Source: a virus (taxonomy: Duplodnaviria > Heunggongvirae > Uroviricota > Caudoviricetes). From it: 7,748 bases of DNA. Of this stretch, positions 1-7,748 are shown one piece after another. The position numbers and the translations under genes are program-made. Position 1 is the stretch's first letter; each line of letters starts with the position of its first letter. The notes under the pieces are model-generated. The model was not told the DNA's origin, did no database searches, and saw nothing but the letters and a program-made list of their open reading frames with translations. Location: IMG/VR virus record IMGVR_UViG_2537561709_000008; one strand, 5' to 3'.

Positions 1-168
1 CCGCTCATGCTGGCGAACCCAGACACGCAGAGTCTCCGGCGTACAGCCAATCTTTGGGGCAATGGAACAAATTGCCGCCCACTGTGAGTCATATTCATCC
101 TGACTTTCCAGAACCATACGAATCGCCCGCTGACGGACTTCGGGGGAAAAACGAGTATTTTTAGTCAT
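1..168 (-). CDS. IS3-family transposase OrfA, N-terminal 56 codons (partial, runs off window edge)
   Basis: ATG at 168-166 preceded by GAGG Shine-Dalgarno (about 178-175); translation [56 protein letters not shown] is a typical IS3-family OrfA helix-turn-helix N-terminus. Not in the ORF track because no stop lies inside the window. Confidence 0.8.
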
Positions 169-197
169 CCTGTTTACCTCTTTCTCAGGGAGTTTAG

Positions 198-222
198 TCT
201 CCAGGATTTCCGGGGCGGTTCA
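198..222 (-). repeat. Terminal inverted repeat of the IS3-family element (approximate extent)
   Basis: Element terminus TGAACCGCCCCGG... at 222 reading on the minus strand; IR length is assumed from the family, the partner IR is outside the window. Confidence 0.45.
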
Positions 223-247
223 GATGTTGAGTGGCCAGTCGCCCCAC

Positions 248-288
248 AATAAAAAGAAAAAGCCATCGACAGAAATATCGATGGCTTT
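248..288 (-). terminator. Rho-independent terminator downstream of the acetyltransferase gene
   Basis: Perfect 11-bp stem (259-269 pairs with 278-288: AAAGCCATCGA / TCGATGGCTTT), 8-nt loop, followed on the minus strand by TTCTTTTTATT (258-248). Lies 8 nt after the stop codon at 298-296. Confidence 0.6.
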
Positions 289-295
289 ATGTACT

Positions 296-868
296 CTATT
301 TATACAATACAACACCACTCTTTTTAGTTATATATGTGCAGTTTGATGGTATATCTTTATTTATAAAAGACATTGCACCTATTTTTACATTATCCCCAAT
401 TTTACGTGATAATCCAATGATGCAACAATTAGCTCCGATATCAACGTTACTACCAATTTTTACTCTTGAACTAGGCATATCACCATCTATCTGTCCAATG
501 GTAGTATTCTGTCGTAATACCAGATTTTCACCCGCATCAACAGCAAAATGAACAACAATTCCAGCATGATGGGGAATTGTCAACCCTTTTCCAATATTTG
601 CGCCCAATCCTATTTCACAACCAAACTTGTTAATTATTTTACTGTTTAACTTTTTGGCTGCTTTCTTATGTAATTTATTACCATTAATATACATTTCGTT
701 AGCCAACCGCCACCAGAAAAGGAAATTCCGGTTACGCTGCTTTTTCTCTCTTAAAAGCCTCCAGATATCCATACGTTTCCGCCGAATTACTTCATGTTTC
801 CAGAAGTTTTTTAAATTAGTAGAGTTTCCAAATAAAACAAAGTGAATTGCCATTAAGTAAGATAGCAC
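296..868 (-). CDS. Hexapeptide-repeat (left-handed beta-helix) acyltransferase, serine acetyltransferase (CysE/WcaB-like) family; putative polysaccharide O-acetyltransferase
   Basis: ORF 296..901 in the track. Start placed at GTG 868-866 because AAGGAG (880-875) sits 6 nt upstream; ATG 853 is the alternative. Helical N-terminal region then KFGCEIGLGANIGKGLTIPHHAGIVV and repeated [LIV]G-x-x hexapeptides (KIGSNVDIGANCCIIG, KIGDNVKIGAMSFI), resembling the CysE core DIHPAAKIGRGIMLDHATGIVVGE. Strongly AT-rich relative to the flanking tail genes. Confidence 0.65.
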   Translation of the reverse strand: MLSYLMAIHFVLFGNSTNLKNFWKHEVIRRKRMDIWRLLREKKQRNRNFLFWWRLANEMYINGNKLHKKAAKKLNSKIINKFGCEIGLGANIGKGLTIPHHAGIVVHFAVDAGENLVLRQNTTIGQIDGDMPSSRVKIGSNVDIGANCCIIGLSRKIGDNVKIGAMSFINKDIPSNCTYITKKSGVVLYK

Positions 869-919
869 GATAATCTCCTTAATTATTATTTCAGACCACA
901 CATGTTATAAGGTTAAGAG

Positions 920-948
920 ATTATAAAATCCTGTTATTTGTTATTCAA
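920..948 (-). promoter_or_regulatory. Sigma70-type promoter for the acetyltransferase gene
   Basis: On the minus strand: -35 TTGAAT (948-943), 17-nt spacer, consensus -10 TATAAT (925-920), about 45 nt upstream of the SD/GTG start. Sequence-only prediction. Confidence 0.45.
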
Positions 949-982
949 AAACAATTTTCTGAGAAGGACATACAACAGCAAG

Positions 983-1014
983 TCGCCAGTCACCTTCATC
1001 AGGAAATTGGCGAC
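983..1014 (-). terminator. Possible weak stem-loop just downstream of gpU
   Basis: GTCGCCA (983-989) pairs with TGGCGAC (1008-1014), but the loop is long (about 16-18 nt) and the downstream minus-strand tract TTGCTGTTGTATG is only moderately U-rich. Low confidence. Confidence 0.2.
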
Positions 1015-1024
1015 ATACGTTAAA

Positions 1025-1519
1025 TCAGAGCAGCCCCTTAACTGAGCTGGCCGCGCTATTAAGGGATGATGTCACCTTATCTTTGAAGCCGGACAGCATA
1101 TCGCTGAACGATGAGGATTGCAGGCGCTCCCGCAAATCCTCATCACAGCGTTCAAGAGTCAGTGAAAATTCTATCTTTTTCGCCTTACCGTAGCGATCAA
1201 ACTCGGAGCGGGTCGTATTCGTTCCGGTCAGGACATACATGCCGTAAATCTGCCCGACGCCATCAATCAAAGGCCAAGGACGTCCTGTATATGCCTGCGT
1301 GGTCAACAACGACAGCGACACTTCGCCACCAGTAATCTCAGGATAAAGAACACCAGAAAGAACGATGCGATCATCACCTGCACCGATATACTGCCAGCTT
1401 GCTGAACGGTTAACGCGTTCATTTTTCACATGTCGCCAGCTTTTGTTTTGCTGTAACTGCTGATGCGGCAACGTGCGCAGCTCAAAAACAAACATGCCGT
1501 AGATCATCATCATGGCCAT
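1025..1519 (-). CDS. U: P2-type tail protein gpU
   Basis: 164-aa ORF immediately after the tape measure gene; N-terminus MAMMMIYGMFVFELRTLP...NERVNRSASWQYIGAGDDRIVLSGVLYPEITGG resembles what I recall of P2 gpU. Position and orientation fit the FI-FII-E-T-U order. Confidence 0.8.
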   Translation of the reverse strand: MAMMMIYGMFVFELRTLPHQQLQQNKSWRHVKNERVNRSASWQYIGAGDDRIVLSGVLYPEITGGEVSLSLLTTQAYTGRPWPLIDGVGQIYGMYVLTGTNTTRSEFDRYGKAKKIEFSLTLERCDEDLRERLQSSSFSDMLSGFKDKVTSSLNSAASSVKGLL

Positions 1520-1525
1520 GACTCC

Positions 1526-2362
1526 TCAATCTTTATCGTAAAAACTGCCACGCCTGGCACGGGCGCGCCGTTCCATTTCTGCCCTGACCATTTCGCCGAC
1601 CAGTTTCGCCAGTTCGCGGGGATTCTGCGTAACAACGTTATGCAGATGAACATGAATTTCACCGCCAAATCCGGAGGCAACAGGCTCCCGGTTACGGGAA
1701 GTTGCAGGAACTGATGCCACTGGCGATCGTATGGCCTCCACCACCGGGCGGGAGCTGGCCGCAACAACAGGGACCAGCGCCGGAGGCAGCGGAGCCGGGA
1801 CCACGGGTGTGATATTAATTGCGGGGGCAGGCTTACTGACCTGCGCAATCTTCCGCTCCTGCCACTCCCCACGAACAGCAAGTGCGCGGGGCAGGTTCTT
1901 AAAGACAATATCGCCGGGGCCAATGCGTTTTTTTGTCTCATCAACCAGCTTACCTGTGTTATCAGCAATTTTGCTGAGTCTGCGTAGCGTGCCGGTATTG
2001 CTGTCTGTGAGAGGTTTGTTGTCTTTGGGTTTATCATCTCCGGTGCCATTGCTATTTCCCGCAGACTTCGGCGGATTGATTTTCGCAATGTCTCCCTGAA
2101 ACAGAGCAACCTTGTCCTGAAGAATGGCCGCACGTTGTGCGTCTTCGATTTTCTTGCGCGCCCTTTCCGCTTCATCCGGAAGCACACCGAGTTTTTCAAG
2201 TATCCACGCCAGCGTATCCAGCAACATTTTTGCAGGCGTCAGAACAAGCTGTAACGCACCACCAAGAACGTTACCGAATACCTCGCCAGCACTGGTACAT
2301 TTATCCAGCGTTTCCTTGCTGGACTCCATCGGTGACAGCAGCGATTTAAACCAGTTAAACAC
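1526..2362 (-). CDS. T: Tail tape measure protein, C-terminal segment, in the -1 frame relative to the N-terminal segment
   Basis: Frame is open from the stop at 2389-2387; the track starts it at GTG 2362. Translation FNWFKSLLSPMESSKETLDK...LQDKVALFQGD...Pro/Ala/Val-rich tract...RRGSFYDKD looks like a real tape-measure C-terminus and ends 6 nt before the U start. Confidence 0.7.
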   Translation of the reverse strand: MFNWFKSLLSPMESSKETLDKCTSAGEVFGNVLGGALQLVLTPAKMLLDTLAWILEKLGVLPDEAERARKKIEDAQRAAILQDKVALFQGDIAKINPPKSAGNSNGTGDDKPKDNKPLTDSNTGTLRRLSKIADNTGKLVDETKKRIGPGDIVFKNLPRALAVRGEWQERKIAQVSKPAPAINITPVVPAPLPPALVPVVAASSRPVVEAIRSPVASVPATSRNREPVASGFGGEIHVHLHNVVTQNPRELAKLVGEMVRAEMERRARARRGSFYDKD

Positions 2363-4365
2363 CTGGCTGAACCGCTTCCGATTACGTCAAAAACAGGGCC
2401 AAACCGTTCAAAGGTGTCGCGCAACGGGGTCAGCCTTTCCATAATCCCGCTGAACACCCCGGCAAAGAAAGCCCTGATAGGATCCCAGTATTTCCAGATA
2501 AGAACGGCAGCTCCGGCAAGCGCAGCCACGATAAGACCAACCGGACTGAACAACGCCCCGATAACGCCTCCCAGTAAAGAAACGGAACCCGTCACCATTC
2601 CCCATAGCGCAGGTAACACCCTGACGACATTCATTGACCGGGTAAGAATGTCAAAACCAAGACGCAGGGTGGCCAGCTTCCCGTAAAGCACCCCAATAAC
2701 CAGCGACAACGAGCCAATCGTTGCAGTCATTGCCAGCAACGCACCGCCTGCTATCAGTAGCTGGCGCGTCAGTACCGGATGGGCCTGCGCCAGCGAGGTG
2801 ATTTTTTCAAGCACCCGCGTGAGCCACTGCGTGACAGAACGCAGCGGACCGTCAACCAGATCACTGATGCGAATACGAAGACCTTCCCATGCGCTGTCGA
2901 GATTTTTCAGGTCCCCATCAAGATTATCAGCCATTACTTTTGCGACGCGATCGGCCTCTCCCCTTGCCCCCTGCAATTCTCTGGTCAGTTTTTGCAGCTC
3001 TCCTGAACCAGCCGCCGCAACAAGCGTCTGCAAACCAACGAACGCCTCTTCTCCGGCGATGTCCTTGAAGAAGGAGACCTGGTCCACCTGTCCGTATTTT
3101 TGTGTCGCCTTATAGAGATCAAGCAGCACATCCTCCATCGGGCGCATTTTGCCTCTGGCGTCAGCAACTGACACCCCCAGCTCTTTCAGTGCATCAGCCG
3201 CAGCTTTTGGCGGTGATGCAAGGCGGGACAGACTTGCGCGCATGGCCGTGCCAGCATCGCTTCCGCGAAGACCATTATTGGCAAGCATCCCGGCCATGGC
3301 CGCCGCTTCTTCAAGACTGATACCAAGTTTTGCGGCAACCGGACCGGTATACTTCATGGTTTCGCCCAGCGCGCGTAAATCAGTATTGGTCCGGGTAAAT
3401 GCTGCTGTCAGCGTATCGCCCACCCGGTCCATTTGATCGGCTGTCAGGTTGAACTGTGTGAGGATATTGGAGCCTATATCAGCCGTCTCGCCGAGTTCGA
3501 CGCCACCTGCCAGCGCCATATTAAGAACACCGGGCAATGCGGCCTGAATGGCCTGCGGAGTAAAACCAGCCATTGCCAGAAAGCTCTGCCCACTGGCGGC
3601 ATCACTCGCAGTAAACTGTGTTTCAGCAAGTTTTAACGCCTGCTCACGCAGCGCCTTAAACTGCGGGCTGTTTTTGTCGATTCGCGTCAGTGCCTGAACG
3701 CGGGACATCTCTTTGCCGAACCCGATCGCAGGCTGCAAAAAACGCCCGGCAGCATAGCCGCCCGCCGCTGCCGCACCAATTGCCAGCGCACCACCTGTTT
3801 TCAGTTTTCCCGCGGTTTCCTGCGCGTGCGAATACCGCTCACGCGCCTGCGTTACACGCGCAAGCGCCTGCCGTTCGCGTTCAAGCTGGTTGTTGTATTG
3901 TTCGGTGCGTCTGATGGCCTGCTGAATGGTGTTATCGCTGCCTGTCAGGGAAATGCCGTGGCGTTTCAGCTCTCCGCCAAGTTCCCTCATTTTCTGAATT
4001 TCCCGTGTGCGCGATTCATTCAGGCGTTCAAGCCGGGTGCTTAACTGCTGCATCAGCTTTTGTTGTTTTTCGCTGAGCACTGTACCCGTGCGTTGTAACT
4101 GATTAAGGGCGTTAAGCTGGCGTCGTGCTTTCACGATGCCAGCATCCGCTTTACTGACAGCGTCGCGGGCGCGCTCAAATGATCGCGCCTGACGCTCGAG
4201 ATTTTTGATCGCCCCCTGCGTTCGCTGGATGGAGTCACCAAACTGCCCCATCAGGCGGCGTGCGTTTTCGGCAGGTCGGGTCAGCCTGTCAACGGCGCTG
4301 AAAGCGACCCGGATATCAAGAGTCTTCATTGTCTGCATTCCCGCTGCGAAGTGCCGCCCGCTCAC
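2239..4365 (-). CDS. T: Tail tape measure protein, N-terminal segment (about 665 credible codons plus about 40 out-of-frame codons before the stop at 2241-2239)
   Basis: Long ORF after E/E' with coiled-coil-like, Ala/Gly-rich and hydrophobic C-proximal character typical of tape measure proteins. True start is uncertain: GTG 4365, ATG 4338 or ATG 4329. The tail ...NRCCHRWSPARKRWINVPVLARYSVTFLVVRYSLF is low-complexity junk, consistent with a frame change near 2370. Confidence 0.75.
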   Translation of the reverse strand: MSGRHFAAGMQTMKTLDIRVAFSAVDRLTRPAENARRLMGQFGDSIQRTQGAIKNLERQARSFERARDAVSKADAGIVKARRQLNALNQLQRTGTVLSEKQQKLMQQLSTRLERLNESRTREIQKMRELGGELKRHGISLTGSDNTIQQAIRRTEQYNNQLERERQALARVTQARERYSHAQETAGKLKTGGALAIGAAAAGGYAAGRFLQPAIGFGKEMSRVQALTRIDKNSPQFKALREQALKLAETQFTASDAASGQSFLAMAGFTPQAIQAALPGVLNMALAGGVELGETADIGSNILTQFNLTADQMDRVGDTLTAAFTRTNTDLRALGETMKYTGPVAAKLGISLEEAAAMAGMLANNGLRGSDAGTAMRASLSRLASPPKAAADALKELGVSVADARGKMRPMEDVLLDLYKATQKYGQVDQVSFFKDIAGEEAFVGLQTLVAAAGSGELQKLTRELQGARGEADRVAKVMADNLDGDLKNLDSAWEGLRIRISDLVDGPLRSVTQWLTRVLEKITSLAQAHPVLTRQLLIAGGALLAMTATIGSLSLVIGVLYGKLATLRLGFDILTRSMNVVRVLPALWGMVTGSVSLLGGVIGALFSPVGLIVAALAGAAVLIWKYWDPIRAFFAGVFSGIMERLTPLRDTFERFGPVFDVIGSGSARCLTGLNRCCHRWSPARKRWINVPVLARYSVTFLVVRYSLF

Positions 4366-4845
4366 GCCAGCTAACCACTTCGCCGGGCGTCATCATGAAG
4401 ATTTCGGCGGGCGACCAGTTAAAAATAACGGCAATATCTGCCACAAAGTCTTCTATGTGCTCAAAGCACACAACCGTGATCAGGCTTCCGTCGCCTGTTC
4501 GTTCTTCCCGCCAGAGTCCGCACCGCTCAAAAAATTTACGGCAACCACACATAACTGAATAAAGTCACGGGATGCCATTTTTTTGATCGTCACTTCATCC
4601 AGTCGCGGTGATGTCACGCGTGACAGCAGCGTAAACATGGATTCCGCTTTCAGATTCAGCACATCAGACAGCGACAAATCTCGCAGAGATCCAGCCTGCT
4701 CAATAGCCCCGGTGATCTCCACATACGTGATTTTTTCGCCGCCTCGCTCAATTGGTTGGGTAAGTTTTACACCACGCTCACTGGTTTCTTTCACAGTGTC
4801 AGTAACTACCGTGTTTTCGGTATCGATGTTTTTCGTCTCTTTCAT
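4316..4845 (-). CDS. E': gpE+E' fusion made by -1 programmed ribosomal frameshifting (about 176 aa)
   Basis: The ORF ending at 4316 (track 4316..4552) is in the -1 frame relative to E and is open from the TGA at 4567-4565. After the slip it reads ERCGLWREERTGDGSLITVV... and overlaps the start of T, as in P2. Confidence 0.65.
4480..4845 (-). CDS. E: Tail assembly chaperone gpE (zero-frame product)
   Basis: 121-aa ORF between FII and T with AAGGAG SD (about 4857-4852) upstream of ATG 4845; contains the slippery heptamer near its 3' end, as in the P2 E/E' pair. Confidence 0.85.
   Translation of the reverse strand: MKETKNIDTENTVVTDTVKETSERGVKLTQPIERGGEKITYVEITGAIEQAGSLRDLSLSDVLNLKAESMFTLLSRVTSPRLDEVTIKKMASRDFIQLCVVAVNFLSGADSGGKNEQATEA
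4528..4534 (-). other. -1 frameshift slippery heptamer T_TTT_TTG for E/E'
   Basis: Minus strand reads AAT TTT TTG in the E frame (N-F-L), so 4534-4528 is T TTT TTG. This is the same heptamer I recall being reported for P2 E/E' (from memory). Confidence 0.6.
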
Positions 4846-4899
4846 CAGGAAACTCCTTTCAGTCAGAGGCGACGCACTGCGCCGCCTGCATATTACTTA

Positions 4900-5412
4900 T
4901 CAGCCAAGCCCAAGCGCGGAACGGATGCGATCGGGCACAATGTCCTTGCCGTCCTTCCGGTAAATGAAGTTCAGCAGGTCAATCTCCCACAACGGGCGAT
5001 CGTTAACACTCAGCTTGTAGTAGGTGTTTTTAATGGCGTAAGTGTGTGATGTGGCTTCGCCCTGTTTGGCTTCCCCCATATCAATTTCCGTCACACGTCC
5101 GCGCATTTCGACTTCATACAGGTCGCTTTCATCATCGGTGTAGTATTCCCCCGCAAAACGCAGTAGCGTGCCGTCAATCGTGCCGCCATACTTCAGGAAC
5201 AGCTCACGAACTGCGCCCCCCATGACAAAGCTCGCATCAAGCGCGGAGTCGTCCAGGCCGAGGTCAATACTTACCGCACCCATCATGCCACCACCCCGGT
5301 AGCTGTCGGTTTTGCGCGTCAGTTTAGGCAGGGTGACGGACGTCACCTTACCCACTTCGTTTTCACCATCCACAAACAGCGTAAAAAAGCGAAGATGTTT
5401 TGGTACAGCCAT
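4900..5412 (-). CDS. FII: Major tail tube protein (P2 FII-like)
   Basis: 170-aa ORF directly after the sheath gene; its ATG (5412-5410) overlaps the FI stop (5414-5412) as TGATG, suggesting translational coupling. Size, position and sequence character fit the P2 FII tube protein. Confidence 0.85.
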   Translation of the reverse strand: MAVPKHLRFFTLFVDGENEVGKVTSVTLPKLTRKTDSYRGGGMMGAVSIDLGLDDSALDASFVMGGAVRELFLKYGGTIDGTLLRFAGEYYTDDESDLYEVEMRGRVTEIDMGEAKQGEATSHTYAIKNTYYKLSVNDRPLWEIDLLNFIYRKDGKDIVPDRIRSALGLG

Positions 5413-6596
5413 CAGGCACCTCCCAGCACCGCAAATGCGGGACCAAAGAATTCATCAGTAAACGACTGGTAAAGCTCCATGTCTTCCAGCGGAGGAACGG
5501 GCGTATATTTGTAGCGAATACGCACACGCCCCTGACGTAAATTCGTGGTGCTGTTATCCTCGATGTCATACCAGCACTCCGCGCCAATCAGTTTCCCGGC
5601 AGTAACCAGTGAATCCAGTTTTGCCCTGATGGCACTGATAACATCCTTCACGTTCGCAGGTGTCAGTGGACTGTCGATGGTTTCAAACTGCGCTTCCGCA
5701 ATTGAATCAGCCAGCACCTGTGCGGTTCGGGTATACACCTCAAAGATGTAGGCGTTCGTTTCCGGTGTGCGGTTGCCCCAGAAGCGGAACCCGTTGCGAC
5801 GAATAATGGTCGTGATTTCTTTGTTGTTGAGGCTGTTGGCATCACTGTCTTCGGCCTGCAACGACCAGAACACATGCCTCGACATCCCAAGCACATTTTT
5901 AACCGGAACGTTGGACAGCGATTTGTGCCAGCCCTGCTCATGGTCAATGTACGCACGAAGGCCGCACGCATAAGCAGGCGCGGGGAACGTTTCGTTTTTG
6001 CCACTTTTCAGGTTGTAGGCGATGAAGTCAGGCCATAAGAGCATCACCTCACGTTCGTTGAATTTCTGGCGGTAGGTAATCGCCTCAGCCATCGTGTTAC
6101 AACCATGACATGTGGCATACACAAACGCGCGCAGTTTACCCGCAATCACGCACAGGGATTTTGTTACCGCCTCCGTGTCCAGCTCCGGCGCGGCCAGAAT
6201 ACGCGGACGGTATCCGATGCTTTCATCCTGCTCTGCAACAAGCAGCGCATACATCCCCGTATAGCTGCCGTCAGATTCAGAACCACCGATAACCAGTTGA
6301 TCCTGCGTCTTACCGCCTTCTTCTTTGTGTTCAGCCACGCGAACGACGATCACTTTTGTGCTCACCTGGTCTGCGATAGCCTTAAGCGCACGATAAAGCG
6401 TCCCCGTAGTCCCGCATTTTCCCAGCACGTCATTGACGCGGGTCAGCAGTGTGGGCTTGTTCAGCGGGAACAGCTCCGCGTCCGCATCATCTGCCGTTGC
6501 CACGATACCGATAACACTGGAATCAACATCATTAATCGCTGTTACCAGGTCGGTACTTTCCGTAACACGGGCACCATGAAAACGAGTTTCACTCAT
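5412..6596 (-). CDS. FI: Tail sheath protein (P2 FI-like)
   Basis: 394-aa ORF; motifs such as FPLNKP, GTLYRALKAIADQ, KLRAFVYA, ITYRQKF, REVMLLWPDF, GLRAYIDHEQGWHKSLSNV, RFWGNRT, YTRTAQVLADS and YKYTPVPPLE correspond to what I recall of P2 gpFI. AAGGGG SD upstream of ATG 6596. Confidence 0.9.
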   Translation of the reverse strand: MSETRFHGARVTESTDLVTAINDVDSSVIGIVATADDADAELFPLNKPTLLTRVNDVLGKCGTTGTLYRALKAIADQVSTKVIVVRVAEHKEEGGKTQDQLVIGGSESDGSYTGMYALLVAEQDESIGYRPRILAAPELDTEAVTKSLCVIAGKLRAFVYATCHGCNTMAEAITYRQKFNEREVMLLWPDFIAYNLKSGKNETFPAPAYACGLRAYIDHEQGWHKSLSNVPVKNVLGMSRHVFWSLQAEDSDANSLNNKEITTIIRRNGFRFWGNRTPETNAYIFEVYTRTAQVLADSIAEAQFETIDSPLTPANVKDVISAIRAKLDSLVTAGKLIGAECWYDIEDNSTTNLRQGRVRIRYKYTPVPPLEDMELYQSFTDEFFGPAFAVLGGA

Positions 6597-6753
6597 AGCT
6601 TCAGCCCCTTGTATCCGTTAAATGATTCGGCAACAATCATCACCCACCACGCGCGTAATCTCACCCCTGCGCCGTTCTCCCGCCACGGCGACAACAAAAA
6701 GCAGTAACCCCCTCCGCACGCACATGCGACCATGCCGCACAGGGAGGGAACAG

Positions 6754-7020
6754 ATGACCGACACCACCATGCAATTGCTCAGTCAGGGCACAGACCACGT
6801 GAAAGTGCCGGATTTTGATATTCTCGCGGAGGGTAAAACGCTGTCAGGCGTGGCAGAGCGCCTGATGAGCCTGTCACTGACCGACAACCGGGGATTTGAG
6901 GCGGACCAGCTCACCATCACGCTGGATGATGCAGATGGTCAGTTGCAGCTACCGCCACGGGGCGCGCGCCTGACGGTTCTCATTGGCTGGAAAGGAGAAC
7001 CGCTGACAGAAAAAGGCACT
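6754..7020 (+). pseudogene. D: Phage late-control/tail protein gpD, 5' fragment (89 codons) truncated by IS30 insertion
   Basis: GGAGGG SD (6743-6748) then ATG 6754; translation MTDTTMQLLSQGTDHVKVPDFD...SLSLTDNRGFEADQLTITLDDADGQLQLPPRGARLTVLIGWKGEPLTEKGT matches the conserved gpD N-terminus (SLTDNRGFEADQL...). Homology stops at 7020; the reading frame continues 18 codons into the IS30 end (to 7077). Confidence 0.8.
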
Positions 7021-7046
7021 TGTAGATTCAATCTGTCAATGCAACA
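7021..7046. repeat. IS30 terminal inverted repeat (approximate extent)
   Basis: Terminal sequence TGTAGATTCAATCTGTCAATGCAACA; a 26-bp extent is assumed from the element family, the partner IR is outside the window. Confidence 0.5.
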
Positions 7047-7748
7047 CCCCTTTCAATTATCTCTTTCGGTGTTTTGAACTTCAGTGTCTTTCTCGGTCTG
7101 TTGTTTAGCTGAGCAGCAACCAGATCTAGTTCATGTTGAGTATATTGGGCAAGACATGTCTTTTTAGGAAAGTACTGCCGAATTAGCCCATTTGTGTTCT
7201 CATTTGTTCCCCGCTGCCAAGGACTCTGAGGATCGCAGAAGTAAACTTTAACGCCGGTGCTGACAGTAAATTCTAGATGTCTGGCCAGTTCCATTCCTCT
7301 GTCCCATGTCAGTGATTTTCTGAGTTCTGACGGTAAACTCAGGAATTTGTCGGTAAGAGCCTGATTTACTGAGACAGAATCTTTGCCCCTGAGTCTGAGG
7401 ATGATCGTATAACGTGATTTTCGGTCTACAAGTGTGGCTATATGAGAGTTTTTTGTACCTGAGACTAAATCGCCCTCCCAATGCCCTAGAGAGCGTCTGT
7501 TATCGATATTTCGGGAACGTTCGTGAATTGGTGTTCCGTTCACTATGTTAATCGTACCTCTTTCGCCTTTGCGGGTATGACGCCTGCCATGGCGAAGGCT
7601 ATGCGACCGTCGCAGATGCTGTATATTCAGGTGGTGTAGCGCTTCACGGCTACGAAAGTACAGCGTTTTATAAATTGTCTCAGGTGATATTCGCAGCGTT
7701 TTTTGACGTGGTTTTGTTCGCCTTAACCATCCTGATATTTGCTCTGGA
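7028..7748 (-). CDS. IS30 transposase, C-terminal about 239 codons (partial; 5' end outside window)
   Basis: Minus-strand frame is open from the window edge: ...PEQISGWLRRTKPRQKTLRISPETIYKTLYFRSREALHHLNIQHLRRSHSLRHGRRHTRKGERGTINIVNGTPIHERSRNIDNRRSLGHWEGDLVSGTKNSHIATLVDRKSRYT...FKTPKEIIERGVALTD, stop TGA at 7030-7028. The track lists only 7028..7543 because it begins at the first GTG. Confidence 0.9.
   Translation of the reverse strand, partial: PEQISGWLRRTKPRQKTLRISPETIYKTLYFRSREALHHLNIQHLRRSHSLRHGRRHTRKGERGTINIVNGTPIHERSRNIDNRRSLGHWEGDLVSGTKNSHIATLVDRKSRYTIILRLRGKDSVSVNQALTDKFLSLPSELRKSLTWDRGMELARHLEFTVSTGVKVYFCDPQSPWQRGTNENTNGLIRQYFPKKTCLAQYTQHELDLVAAQLNNRPRKTLKFKTPKEIIERGVALTD

Follow-up and report, generated by a model that had tools for sequence, protein, structure and literature searches.

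Intact tape measure genes are described in functional phages of the Peduoviridae, phage 500465-2 (YP_009949284.1, Gemsvirus) and the P88-type Xuanwuvirus phages. In these phages the gene is a single open reading frame (ORF) within the gene order sheath-tube-E-E'-T-U. The locus studied here has the same gene order, and its tape measure gene is collinear with theirs over the whole gene at 89-96% DNA identity, but its coding region is divided between two ORFs. The same gene is already annotated in Escherichia coli O157:H7. In strain Sakai, where the annotation at the locus reads "prophage Sp13, P2-like phage", RefSeq lists it as the pseudogene ECs_2640; in EDL933, where the element is CP-933T, it is EDL933_RS14220, "phage tail tape measure protein, frameshifted". 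Both are identical to the gene studied here, with the same lesion, coordinates and neighbors. Sp13 is without most morphogenetic genes (Asadulghani et al. 2009, PMC2669165). Its head and baseplate genes are gone from Sakai.

The literature on ECs2640, ECs2641 and CP-933T held no paper on the lesion, only general statements that Sp13 is morphogenetically defective. The lesion is already recorded in public annotation, and the gene is an ordinary pseudogene. Comparison with intact relatives leads us to conclude that the ORF pair almost certainly represents the halves of a single Sp13/CP-933T tape measure gene, broken by a genuine, vertically inherited GA>T mutation, and that the resulting pseudogene is best read as a product of secondary decay.

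Results

Organization of the locus

The window, meaning the whole stretch of 7,748 nucleotides that was analyzed, matches the Sp13 regions of O157:H7 genomes over positions 223..7748 at 99.96-100% identity. Judged by sequence, it belongs to Sp13/CP-933T, a P2-like prophage (Peduoviridae) that is defective in E. coli O157:H7. The idea that the window was cut unchanged from Sakai or EDL933 was rejected, as it has an IS629/IS1203 end at 1-222 and a 3-nt indel in IS30. The strain of the window departs from Sakai in these two respects only: IS629 adjoins position 223 at the left edge, and IS30 has this indel. Neither difference affects the tape measure gene.

Within the tail cluster the tape measure gene stands where expected, with the frameshifted E/E' chaperone pair immediately before it and gpU/gpD following. 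Coordinates of all features are collected in Table 1.

Table 1. Features of the tape measure locus, in window coordinates, with the evidence for each.
Feature	Position	Strand	Basis
IS629/IS1203 end, adjoining tail fiber assembly gene remnant	1..222	.	100% identical to IS1203 copy in NCCP 13892
gpU-like tail protein gene, intact, immediately downstream of T	1025..1519	-	PF06995, 1.5e-38; annotation
Tape measure gene (P2 gene T equivalent), 2804 nt, frameshifted pseudogene	1526..4329	-	annotation; collinearity with 2808-nt gene of phage 500465-2; profile matches
C-terminal 281 codons and native stop, -1 frame relative to start	1526..2370	-	ORF list, alignment, codon coordinates
Premature TGA stop of upstream frame; predicted product 696 aa	2239..2241	-	codon coordinates
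43 out-of-frame codons (SARCLTGLNRCCHRWSPARKRWINVPVLARYSVTFLVVRYSLF) after lesion, upstream frame	2242..2370	-	ORF translation and codon coordinates
T_TTA_AAT heptamer, X_XXY_YYZ register with upstream frame	2344..2350	-	21 nt 3' of lesion; judged incidental
Lesion	2371..2373	-	alignments with PV15-279, 493/89, LSU61, DEC5B and phage 500465-2; codon coordinates
Junction of older in-frame 3-nt deletion (GCT; LKLGSETQ to LKLAETQ)	3627..3628	-	alignments
E' frame, overlapping T start codon	to 4316 (stop)	-	PF06528 Phage_P2_GpE match
E	4845..4480	-	gene order; GpE family CDS in annotation
T_TTT_TTG slippery site of conserved E/E' tail-chaperone -1 frameshift, just upstream of T	4528..4534	-	sequence
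Tube gene	5412..4900	-	gene order
Sheath gene	6596..5412	-	gene order
Late control/tail gene D, 5' fragment (89 codons), cut by IS30	6754..7021	+	annotation, DEC5B comparison
IS30 copy, partly in window, interrupting gene D	7022..7748	-	divergence from uninterrupted DEC5B begins at about 7022

Reading frames of the tape measure gene

Two minus-strand ORFs represent the gene, 2239..4365 (708 aa) and 1526..2362 (278 aa). An earlier note on this DNA had described them as overlapping, with the downstream ORF in the -1 frame, and had placed the join at 2370-2373. Both statements are borne out. The overlap is 124 nt, and (4365-2362) mod 3 = 2. Native protein sequence breaks off at ...FERFGPVFDVIGSG and picks up again at ...SQVFNWFKSLLS, with codon 653 (GGT, window 2373..2371) as the last native codon. 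The downstream ORF is the C-terminal segment read from an incidental GTG. The real start of the gene is ATG 4329 (MKTLDIRV...), as in all annotated homologs, while the GTG at 4365 lies inside the overlapping E' frame. From this ATG and the homolog alignment, an intact protein would have 934 aa for the window allele, compared to 935 aa in relatives, so that the continuous protein of about 945 aa proposed in that note is too long.

The restored protein scores 282.6 bits to TIGR01760 (tape_meas_TP901; cut-off 28.8, aa 190-536, 3.9e-84) and 185.6 bits to PF10145 (PhageMin_Tail; cut-off 33.2, aa 228-426, 1.3e-54). The C-terminal segment, 1526..2370, has no family match of its own in the profile search. 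The predicted product consists of 653 native residues followed by 43 out-of-frame residues and a stop, with 281 C-terminal residues lost. Because the frame is lost past codon 653 and then meets the stop at 2241..2239, the gene is classed as a pseudogene of the TIGR01760/PF10145 tape measure family and not as a functional member.

Intact relatives

Homologs collinear with the gene over its full length occur in 13 phage records (100% of the query covered, 89-96% identity) and in some 1367 E. coli records. A single ORF is the state of the gene in over 1000 related phages and prophages; the break is thereby defined by homology and is no product of chance. Phage 500465-2 has one 2808-nt CDS, separated from the window sequence by 107 substitutions and only two indels; the sole frame-breaking difference falls at 2371-2374.

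Five basal O157/O55:H7 genomes with the Sp13 prophage were examined (493/89, LSU61, PV15-279, F3113 and DEC5B). All five read GGGATC at the lesion site, and the neighboring proteins WP_000954203.1 and WP_000979955.1 are identical in all of them. In O157 493/89 (WP_000853407.1), LSU61 (WP_000853406.1) and O55:H7 DEC5B (WP_000853409.1), the prophage and its flanking genes are as in the window, and the DNA differs at 0-5 positions besides two indels. Unlike the window, these three have both GGGATC and a GCT codon, and their gene is uninterrupted, a 2808-nt CDS that forms a single ORF of 935 aa. In PV15-279 and F3113 the site also reads GGGATC, but the 5' end of the gene has been removed by IS1203. 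Over their aligned lengths, these two differ from the window only at the lesion, at one base, 3836 (beside the IS1203 junction), and, for F3113, by a C>T at 1861. The window has the in-frame GCT deletion in common with the O157:H7 strains PV15-279 and F3113, whereas 493/89, LSU61 and O55:H7 DEC5B do not have it.

Nature of the lesion

The ancestral sequence GGAAGC GGG ATC AGC (G-S-G-I-S) corresponds to GGAAGCGGTTCAGC in the window. On the coding strand, a T at 2371 replaces the ancestral GA (GGG ATC to GGT TC), which on the plus strand means A2371 in place of TC. Codon 653, GGG in the ancestor, has become GGT, and TCA follows it directly. The net effect is -1 nt, with destruction of a GATC site. 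A single-nucleotide frameshift near 2370-2373, with Phe as the residue lost, had been proposed from the window itself. Its position and the net one-nucleotide loss hold. The mutation is a GA>T delins, however, in which no base simply dropped out of a run, and the ancestral GGG ATC shows the lost residue to be Ile.

A first alignment with phage 500465-2 suggested plain loss of one G from GGG, which was refined to the delins. The delins is preferred because the adjacent A>T falls on the same branch and because neither one-step intermediate exists, GGGTTC and GGATC being found in 0 of 5426 genomes. A templated origin, by quasi-palindrome or direct-repeat template switching, was rejected, the matches being compatible with chance. 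No inverted repeat spanning the lesion was found. The derived sequence has its best direct match, the 7-nt GTTCAGC, 83 nt upstream, which is no improvement on the ancestral sequence, matching the same place at 8 nt.

A candidate recoding site

The break had been called too far from a slippery site to be programmed. The distance argument does not hold literally, as an in-register T_TTA_AAT lies inside the overlap; the heptamer is nonetheless without sign of function. A -1 ribosomal slip at this site (2350..2344) would rejoin the frames and yield a near-full-length protein with 7 residues altered, SARCLTG in place of ISQVFNW. The heptamer is canonical X_XXY_YYZ in the right register, within a 148-nt stretch open in both frames, and an SD-like AGGTG, read from the sequence, stands 9 nt upstream. 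Three X_XXY_YYZ heptamers occur in the 696 codons, however, and about 0.2 would be expected in the 49-codon overlap, so the single occurrence there is compatible with chance. The 80 nt downstream of the heptamer fold with an MFE of -22.9 kcal/mol, against a mean of -21.05 for shuffled sequences (z = -0.59). No stimulatory RNA structure stands out above shuffles in this 80-nt fold, and there is no Rfam match. In E. coli, AAU in the A site is a poor shifter.

The history of the site also counts against recoding. Ancestral alleles have the same heptamer bases, out of register in a single-frame gene, and therefore the heptamer did not evolve for recoding. No close or distant homolog examined has a two-frame organization at the lesion site, and the prophage is without the other tail parts that a recoded product would need. 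Programmed recoding at T_TTA_AAT is not supported, because the heptamer is compatible with chance and lacks a structure, and because relatives use one frame; we consider it very improbable. A weaker form of the idea, equally hard to credit, is that low-level -1 slippage at U_UUA_AAU makes the "pseudogene" leaky, producing a near-full-length protein that differs at 7 residues. Were this so, the remaining Sp13 tail proteins (sheath, tube, E/E' and U are intact) might assemble something when other elements complement them.

One gene or two

The two ORFs might instead be separately functional genes of a naturally split tape measure, one for an N-terminal 653-residue fragment and one for a C-terminal protein starting from GTG 2362. 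Both ORFs are long and open, an AGGTG precedes GTG 2362, and the tape measure of phage 520873 is annotated in two pieces. That split, however, lies about 800 nt further upstream and is the only one seen among homologs; no relative is split at the lesion site. No homolog terminates around the 2239 stop and leaves the remainder to a second gene, and the earlier reading of one gene stands. The lesion is the sole difference between the split allele and its intact ancestor, and so there has been no adaptation after the split. Against the two-gene reading also are the downstream segment, without independent family identity, and the disrupted state of the rest of the tail module. We assign this reading a very small likelihood.

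Mutation or sequencing error

The earlier note had left open whether the break is an inactivating mutation or a sequencing error. The first is upheld and the second is not. The 61-mer that spans the lesion recurs without mismatch in 264 complete-genome records, and 13 of 13 sampled exact-match rows look like O157:H7 isolates. That the real genome is one base longer and the gene intact, a sequencing or assembly error suggested by the short runs adjoining the lesion (GG and TT, coding strand), is rejected as practically negligible because those 264 identical records, from many laboratories, stand beside intact orthologs, basal relatives among them; RefSeq, too, annotates the gene as frameshifted in independently sequenced strains, and the GA>T delins is, relative to the ancestral allele, something other than a change in homopolymer length, with runs of no more than 3 nt. 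As this case shows, a frameshift can lie beside a short run without being a homopolymer artifact of sequencing.

Discussion

The reading best fitted to these results is a single tape measure gene inactivated by mutation in the O157:H7 lineage. Replacement of GA by T in the ancestral minus-strand sequence, giving ...GGAAGCGGTTCAGC..., would through its net one-base loss carry the ribosome out of frame after Gly653. It would then read 43 wrong residues and stop at 2241..2239, leaving the 281 C-terminal residues unmade. The mutation seems to have arisen once, on the branch to typical O157:H7. It appears to postdate the in-frame loss of GCT from this gene and probably also the interruption of the essential tail gene D by IS30. 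The order of IS30 in D first and the T frameshift second is the probable one, as suggested by the five basal genomes and parsimony rather than by a whole-genome tree. Because the tail module was probably already dead from IS30 in gene D, the frameshift is read as secondary decay. The lesion would have abolished function in its own gene and would have been neutral in a tail module already non-functional.

The lesion in itself matters little: it adds a further decay mutation to a prophage whose defectiveness was known before. It does make a clean lineage marker, in that GGTTC distinguishes 264 genomes with the lesion, typical O157:H7 like Sakai and EDL933, from the five basal genomes that were examined. 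Combined with the GCT deletion and with the events involving IS30 and IS629, the lesion lets the decay of Sp13 be set out as an ordered succession of steps.

A two-frame arrangement in the tail cluster is itself familiar, from the programmed -1 frameshifts of P2 E/E+E' and lambda G/GT, and to this extent the T gene of the window resembles them. The window keeps the real chaperone frameshift site, T_TTT_TTG at 4534..4528. The break in T is a different matter: it is found 2.15 kb further downstream, relatives do not have it, and no stimulatory element accompanies it. On comparative grounds, the break in T is a mutation and not a conserved recoding signal of the kind found in E/E'.

The split tape measure gene

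Two minus-strand open reading frames cover the tape measure gene (gene T, the equivalent of P2 gene T), overlapping by 124 nt, with the downstream one in the -1 frame relative to the upstream one ((4365-2362) mod 3 = 2). In the upstream frame the protein runs ...FERFGPVFDVIGSG and continues as SARCLTGLNRCCHRW...SLF*; the downstream frame gives ...SQVFNWFKSLLSPMESS... These readings, together with the mechanical ORF list, therefore bear out the split described in an earlier note on this DNA, including the join point. The start assumed there, GTG 4365, is the choice of the ORF finder and sits within the overlapping E' frame. The annotated gene instead runs from ATG 4329 (MKTLDIRV...) to 1526, a length of 2804 nt, and the intact protein has 934-935 rather than about 945 residues. 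The predicted product comprises 653 native and 43 out-of-frame residues, ends at TGA 2241..2239, and lacks 281 C-terminal residues.

Features of the window discussed in the text
Feature	Position	Strand	Remark
IS629/IS1203 end	1-222		100% identical to intact copy elsewhere in NCCP 13892
Downstream ORF	2362..1526	minus	278 aa; mechanical ORF list
1-nt gap in gene T	~2374	minus	alignment with phage 500465-2
In-frame 3-nt gap in gene T	3627/3628	minus	alignment with phage 500465-2
Upstream ORF	4365..2239	minus	708 aa; mechanical ORF list
T_TTT_TTG slippery heptamer, E/E+E' programmed -1 frameshift	4534..4528	minus	canonical, intact

Nature of the lesion

Alignment of the window gene with that of phage 500465-2 shows two indels only. 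At the break, Sp13 prophages (P2-like, of E. coli O157:H7) in other strains and more distant prophages all agree on TTGACGTAATCGGAAGCGGGATCAGCCAGG, where the window has TTGACGTAATCGGAAGCGGTTCAGCCAGG. The lesion is therefore a replacement of GA by T on the coding strand (GGG ATC to GGT TC), appearing on the plus strand as A2371 in place of a former TC; it is a delins, not the homopolymer-type loss proposed earlier. Codon 653 encodes Gly before and after the change. The residue lost is Ile, as the ancestral protein reads ...DVIGSGISQVFNWF..., and not the Phe of the previously restored ...GSGFSQ... The lesion also destroys a GATC site, a Dam site held in the ancestral GGGATC (window 2369-2374).

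No inverted repeat able to template GA>T was found to span the lesion. Among direct repeats, the derived sequence matches over at most 7 nt, no better than the ancestral sequence does. The simplest assumption is one complex error of replication.

Distribution of the alleles

The exact lesion-spanning 61-mer is found in 264 complete-genome records; the 13 exact-match rows sampled all look like O157:H7 isolates. The conceivable single-step intermediates, GGGTTC and GGATC in the lesion context, occur in none of the 5426 genomes searched. With the ancestral allele placed in the Sp13 background, a 151-nt query matches four O157 genomes exactly (PV15-279, 493/89, F3113 and LSU61) and, with one difference, O55:H7 DEC5B among others. 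The Sp13 prophages of 493/89, LSU61 and DEC5B have an intact 2808-nt tape measure CDS, and share the same acetyltransferase (WP_000954203.1), gpU (WP_000979955.1), E' and tube proteins.

Multiple alignment orders these alleles in a series. Both GCT and GGGATC are present in DEC5B, 493/89 and LSU61; PV15-279 and F3113 keep GGGATC after loss of GCT; in the window, Sakai and EDL933 the GCT loss is joined by GGTTC. The GCT deletion, at 3627/3628, changes ...LKLGSETQ... to ...LKLAETQ... and is a lineage marker older than the frameshift. With this series, the intact orthologues and the 61-mer distribution, a sequencing artefact, the alternative first offered beside mutation, is thus in practice ruled out. 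Typical O157:H7 genomes share the lesion as an inherited mutation, which supports the earlier note's main reading of one gene with a genuine inactivating frameshift at 2370-2373 in an IS-ridden prophage.

In PV15-279 and F3113 the 5' 491 nt of gene T were removed separately by an IS1203-associated deletion. F3113 has an extra C>T, at the equivalent of window 1861, that makes an internal stop in the remaining gene; this is independent further decay in a strain without the GA>T lesion.

The possibility of programmed recoding in gene T

The canonical E/E+E' slippery site lies 2.15 kb upstream of the T break, and the E' frame ends at 4316, overlapping the T start codon. Recoding had been dismissed as too far from a slippery site, but an incidental slippery-type heptamer does lie near the lesion: T_TTA_AAT (2350..2344), the only in-register X_XXY_YYZ heptamer in the 148-nt stretch open in both T frames. 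Slipping by -1 at this point would reunite the frames with seven residues changed. That this recoding takes place is very improbable. Three such heptamers are spread over the 696 codons of the upstream frame, a rate at which chance alone would put about 0.2 in the overlap; the 80 nt 3' of the heptamer give a fold no more stable than that of shuffled sequence (z = -0.59), Rfam has no match within the window, and in the ancestral alleles, which have one frame, these bases fall out of register.

Decay of the surrounding tail module

Gene D is essential for P2-type tails. It is split by an IS30 inserted behind codon 89 in the window, Sakai, EDL933 and 493/89, and part of this element is still present in PV15-279 and F3113. 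Since 493/89 combines the interrupted D with an intact T, parsimony indicates that the tail module was probably already inactive when the T frameshift arose. In Sakai and EDL933 the baseplate and head region is additionally replaced by IS629/IS1203. According to Asadulghani et al. 2009 (PMC2669165), Sp13 is without most morphogenetic genes and is reported to undergo excision, replication and packaging all the same, presumably via proteins of other prophages. Neutral secondary decay is the best reading of the T frameshift.

The window IS30 (~7000-7500) matches the NCCP 13892 copy exactly; its length differs by 3 nt from those in Sakai and EDL933. No IS30 is present in LSU61 gene D (LSU61 ~10700-10730, equivalent to window ~7010-7020); a small delins there, GAAAAAGGCACTT to GAAACTACACTT (net -1 nt), frameshifts D within about 10 nt of the IS30 position of other O157 strains, and may represent either an independent lesion or an IS30-loss footprint. 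Gene D of O55:H7 DEC5B is open in one frame, though its annotation covers the 3' part only.

At 222/223 the IS629/IS1203 end directly joins the 3' part that is left of the tail fibre assembly gene; in Sakai, EDL933 and NCCP 13892 roughly 500 nt more of this gene separate the IS remnant from the window-223 point. The window occurs as one contiguous match in none of the complete genomes examined. The source strain has therefore undergone an additional IS629 event.

Comparison with known prophages and phages

Many E. coli O157:H7 chromosomes match the 3.1 kb surrounding gene T at 100% identity. The neighbourhood is a P2-type tail cluster of sheath, tube, E, E' (PF06528), T, gpU (PF06995) and a D fragment, and the restored T protein matches PF10145 (1.3e-54) and TIGR01760 (3.9e-84). 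Between the tail fibre assembly gene and gpU lies a hexapeptide-repeat acyltransferase gene (window 296-868, minus; WP_000954203.1, annotated as serine O-acetyltransferase/LbetaH domain protein), kept in all Sp13-type prophages examined, which looks like a moron (cargo) gene.

Escherichia phage 520873 (NC_049344.1, 627-3433) has a tape measure annotated as two CDSs, broken about 1.15 kb into the gene at a site different from the window's; its split may reflect either a sequencing error in that record or a genuine mutation. Related isolated Peduoviridae phages (500465-2, P88, PhiR44_2 and others) encode the tape measure in a single CDS of 2808 nt (935 aa). In Sakai the locus lies within "prophage Sp13, P2-like phage", with gene T annotated as pseudogene ECs_2640, and the EDL933 annotation reads "phage tail tape measure protein, frameshifted". 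The window gene is this already known ECs_2640/CP-933T tape measure pseudogene.
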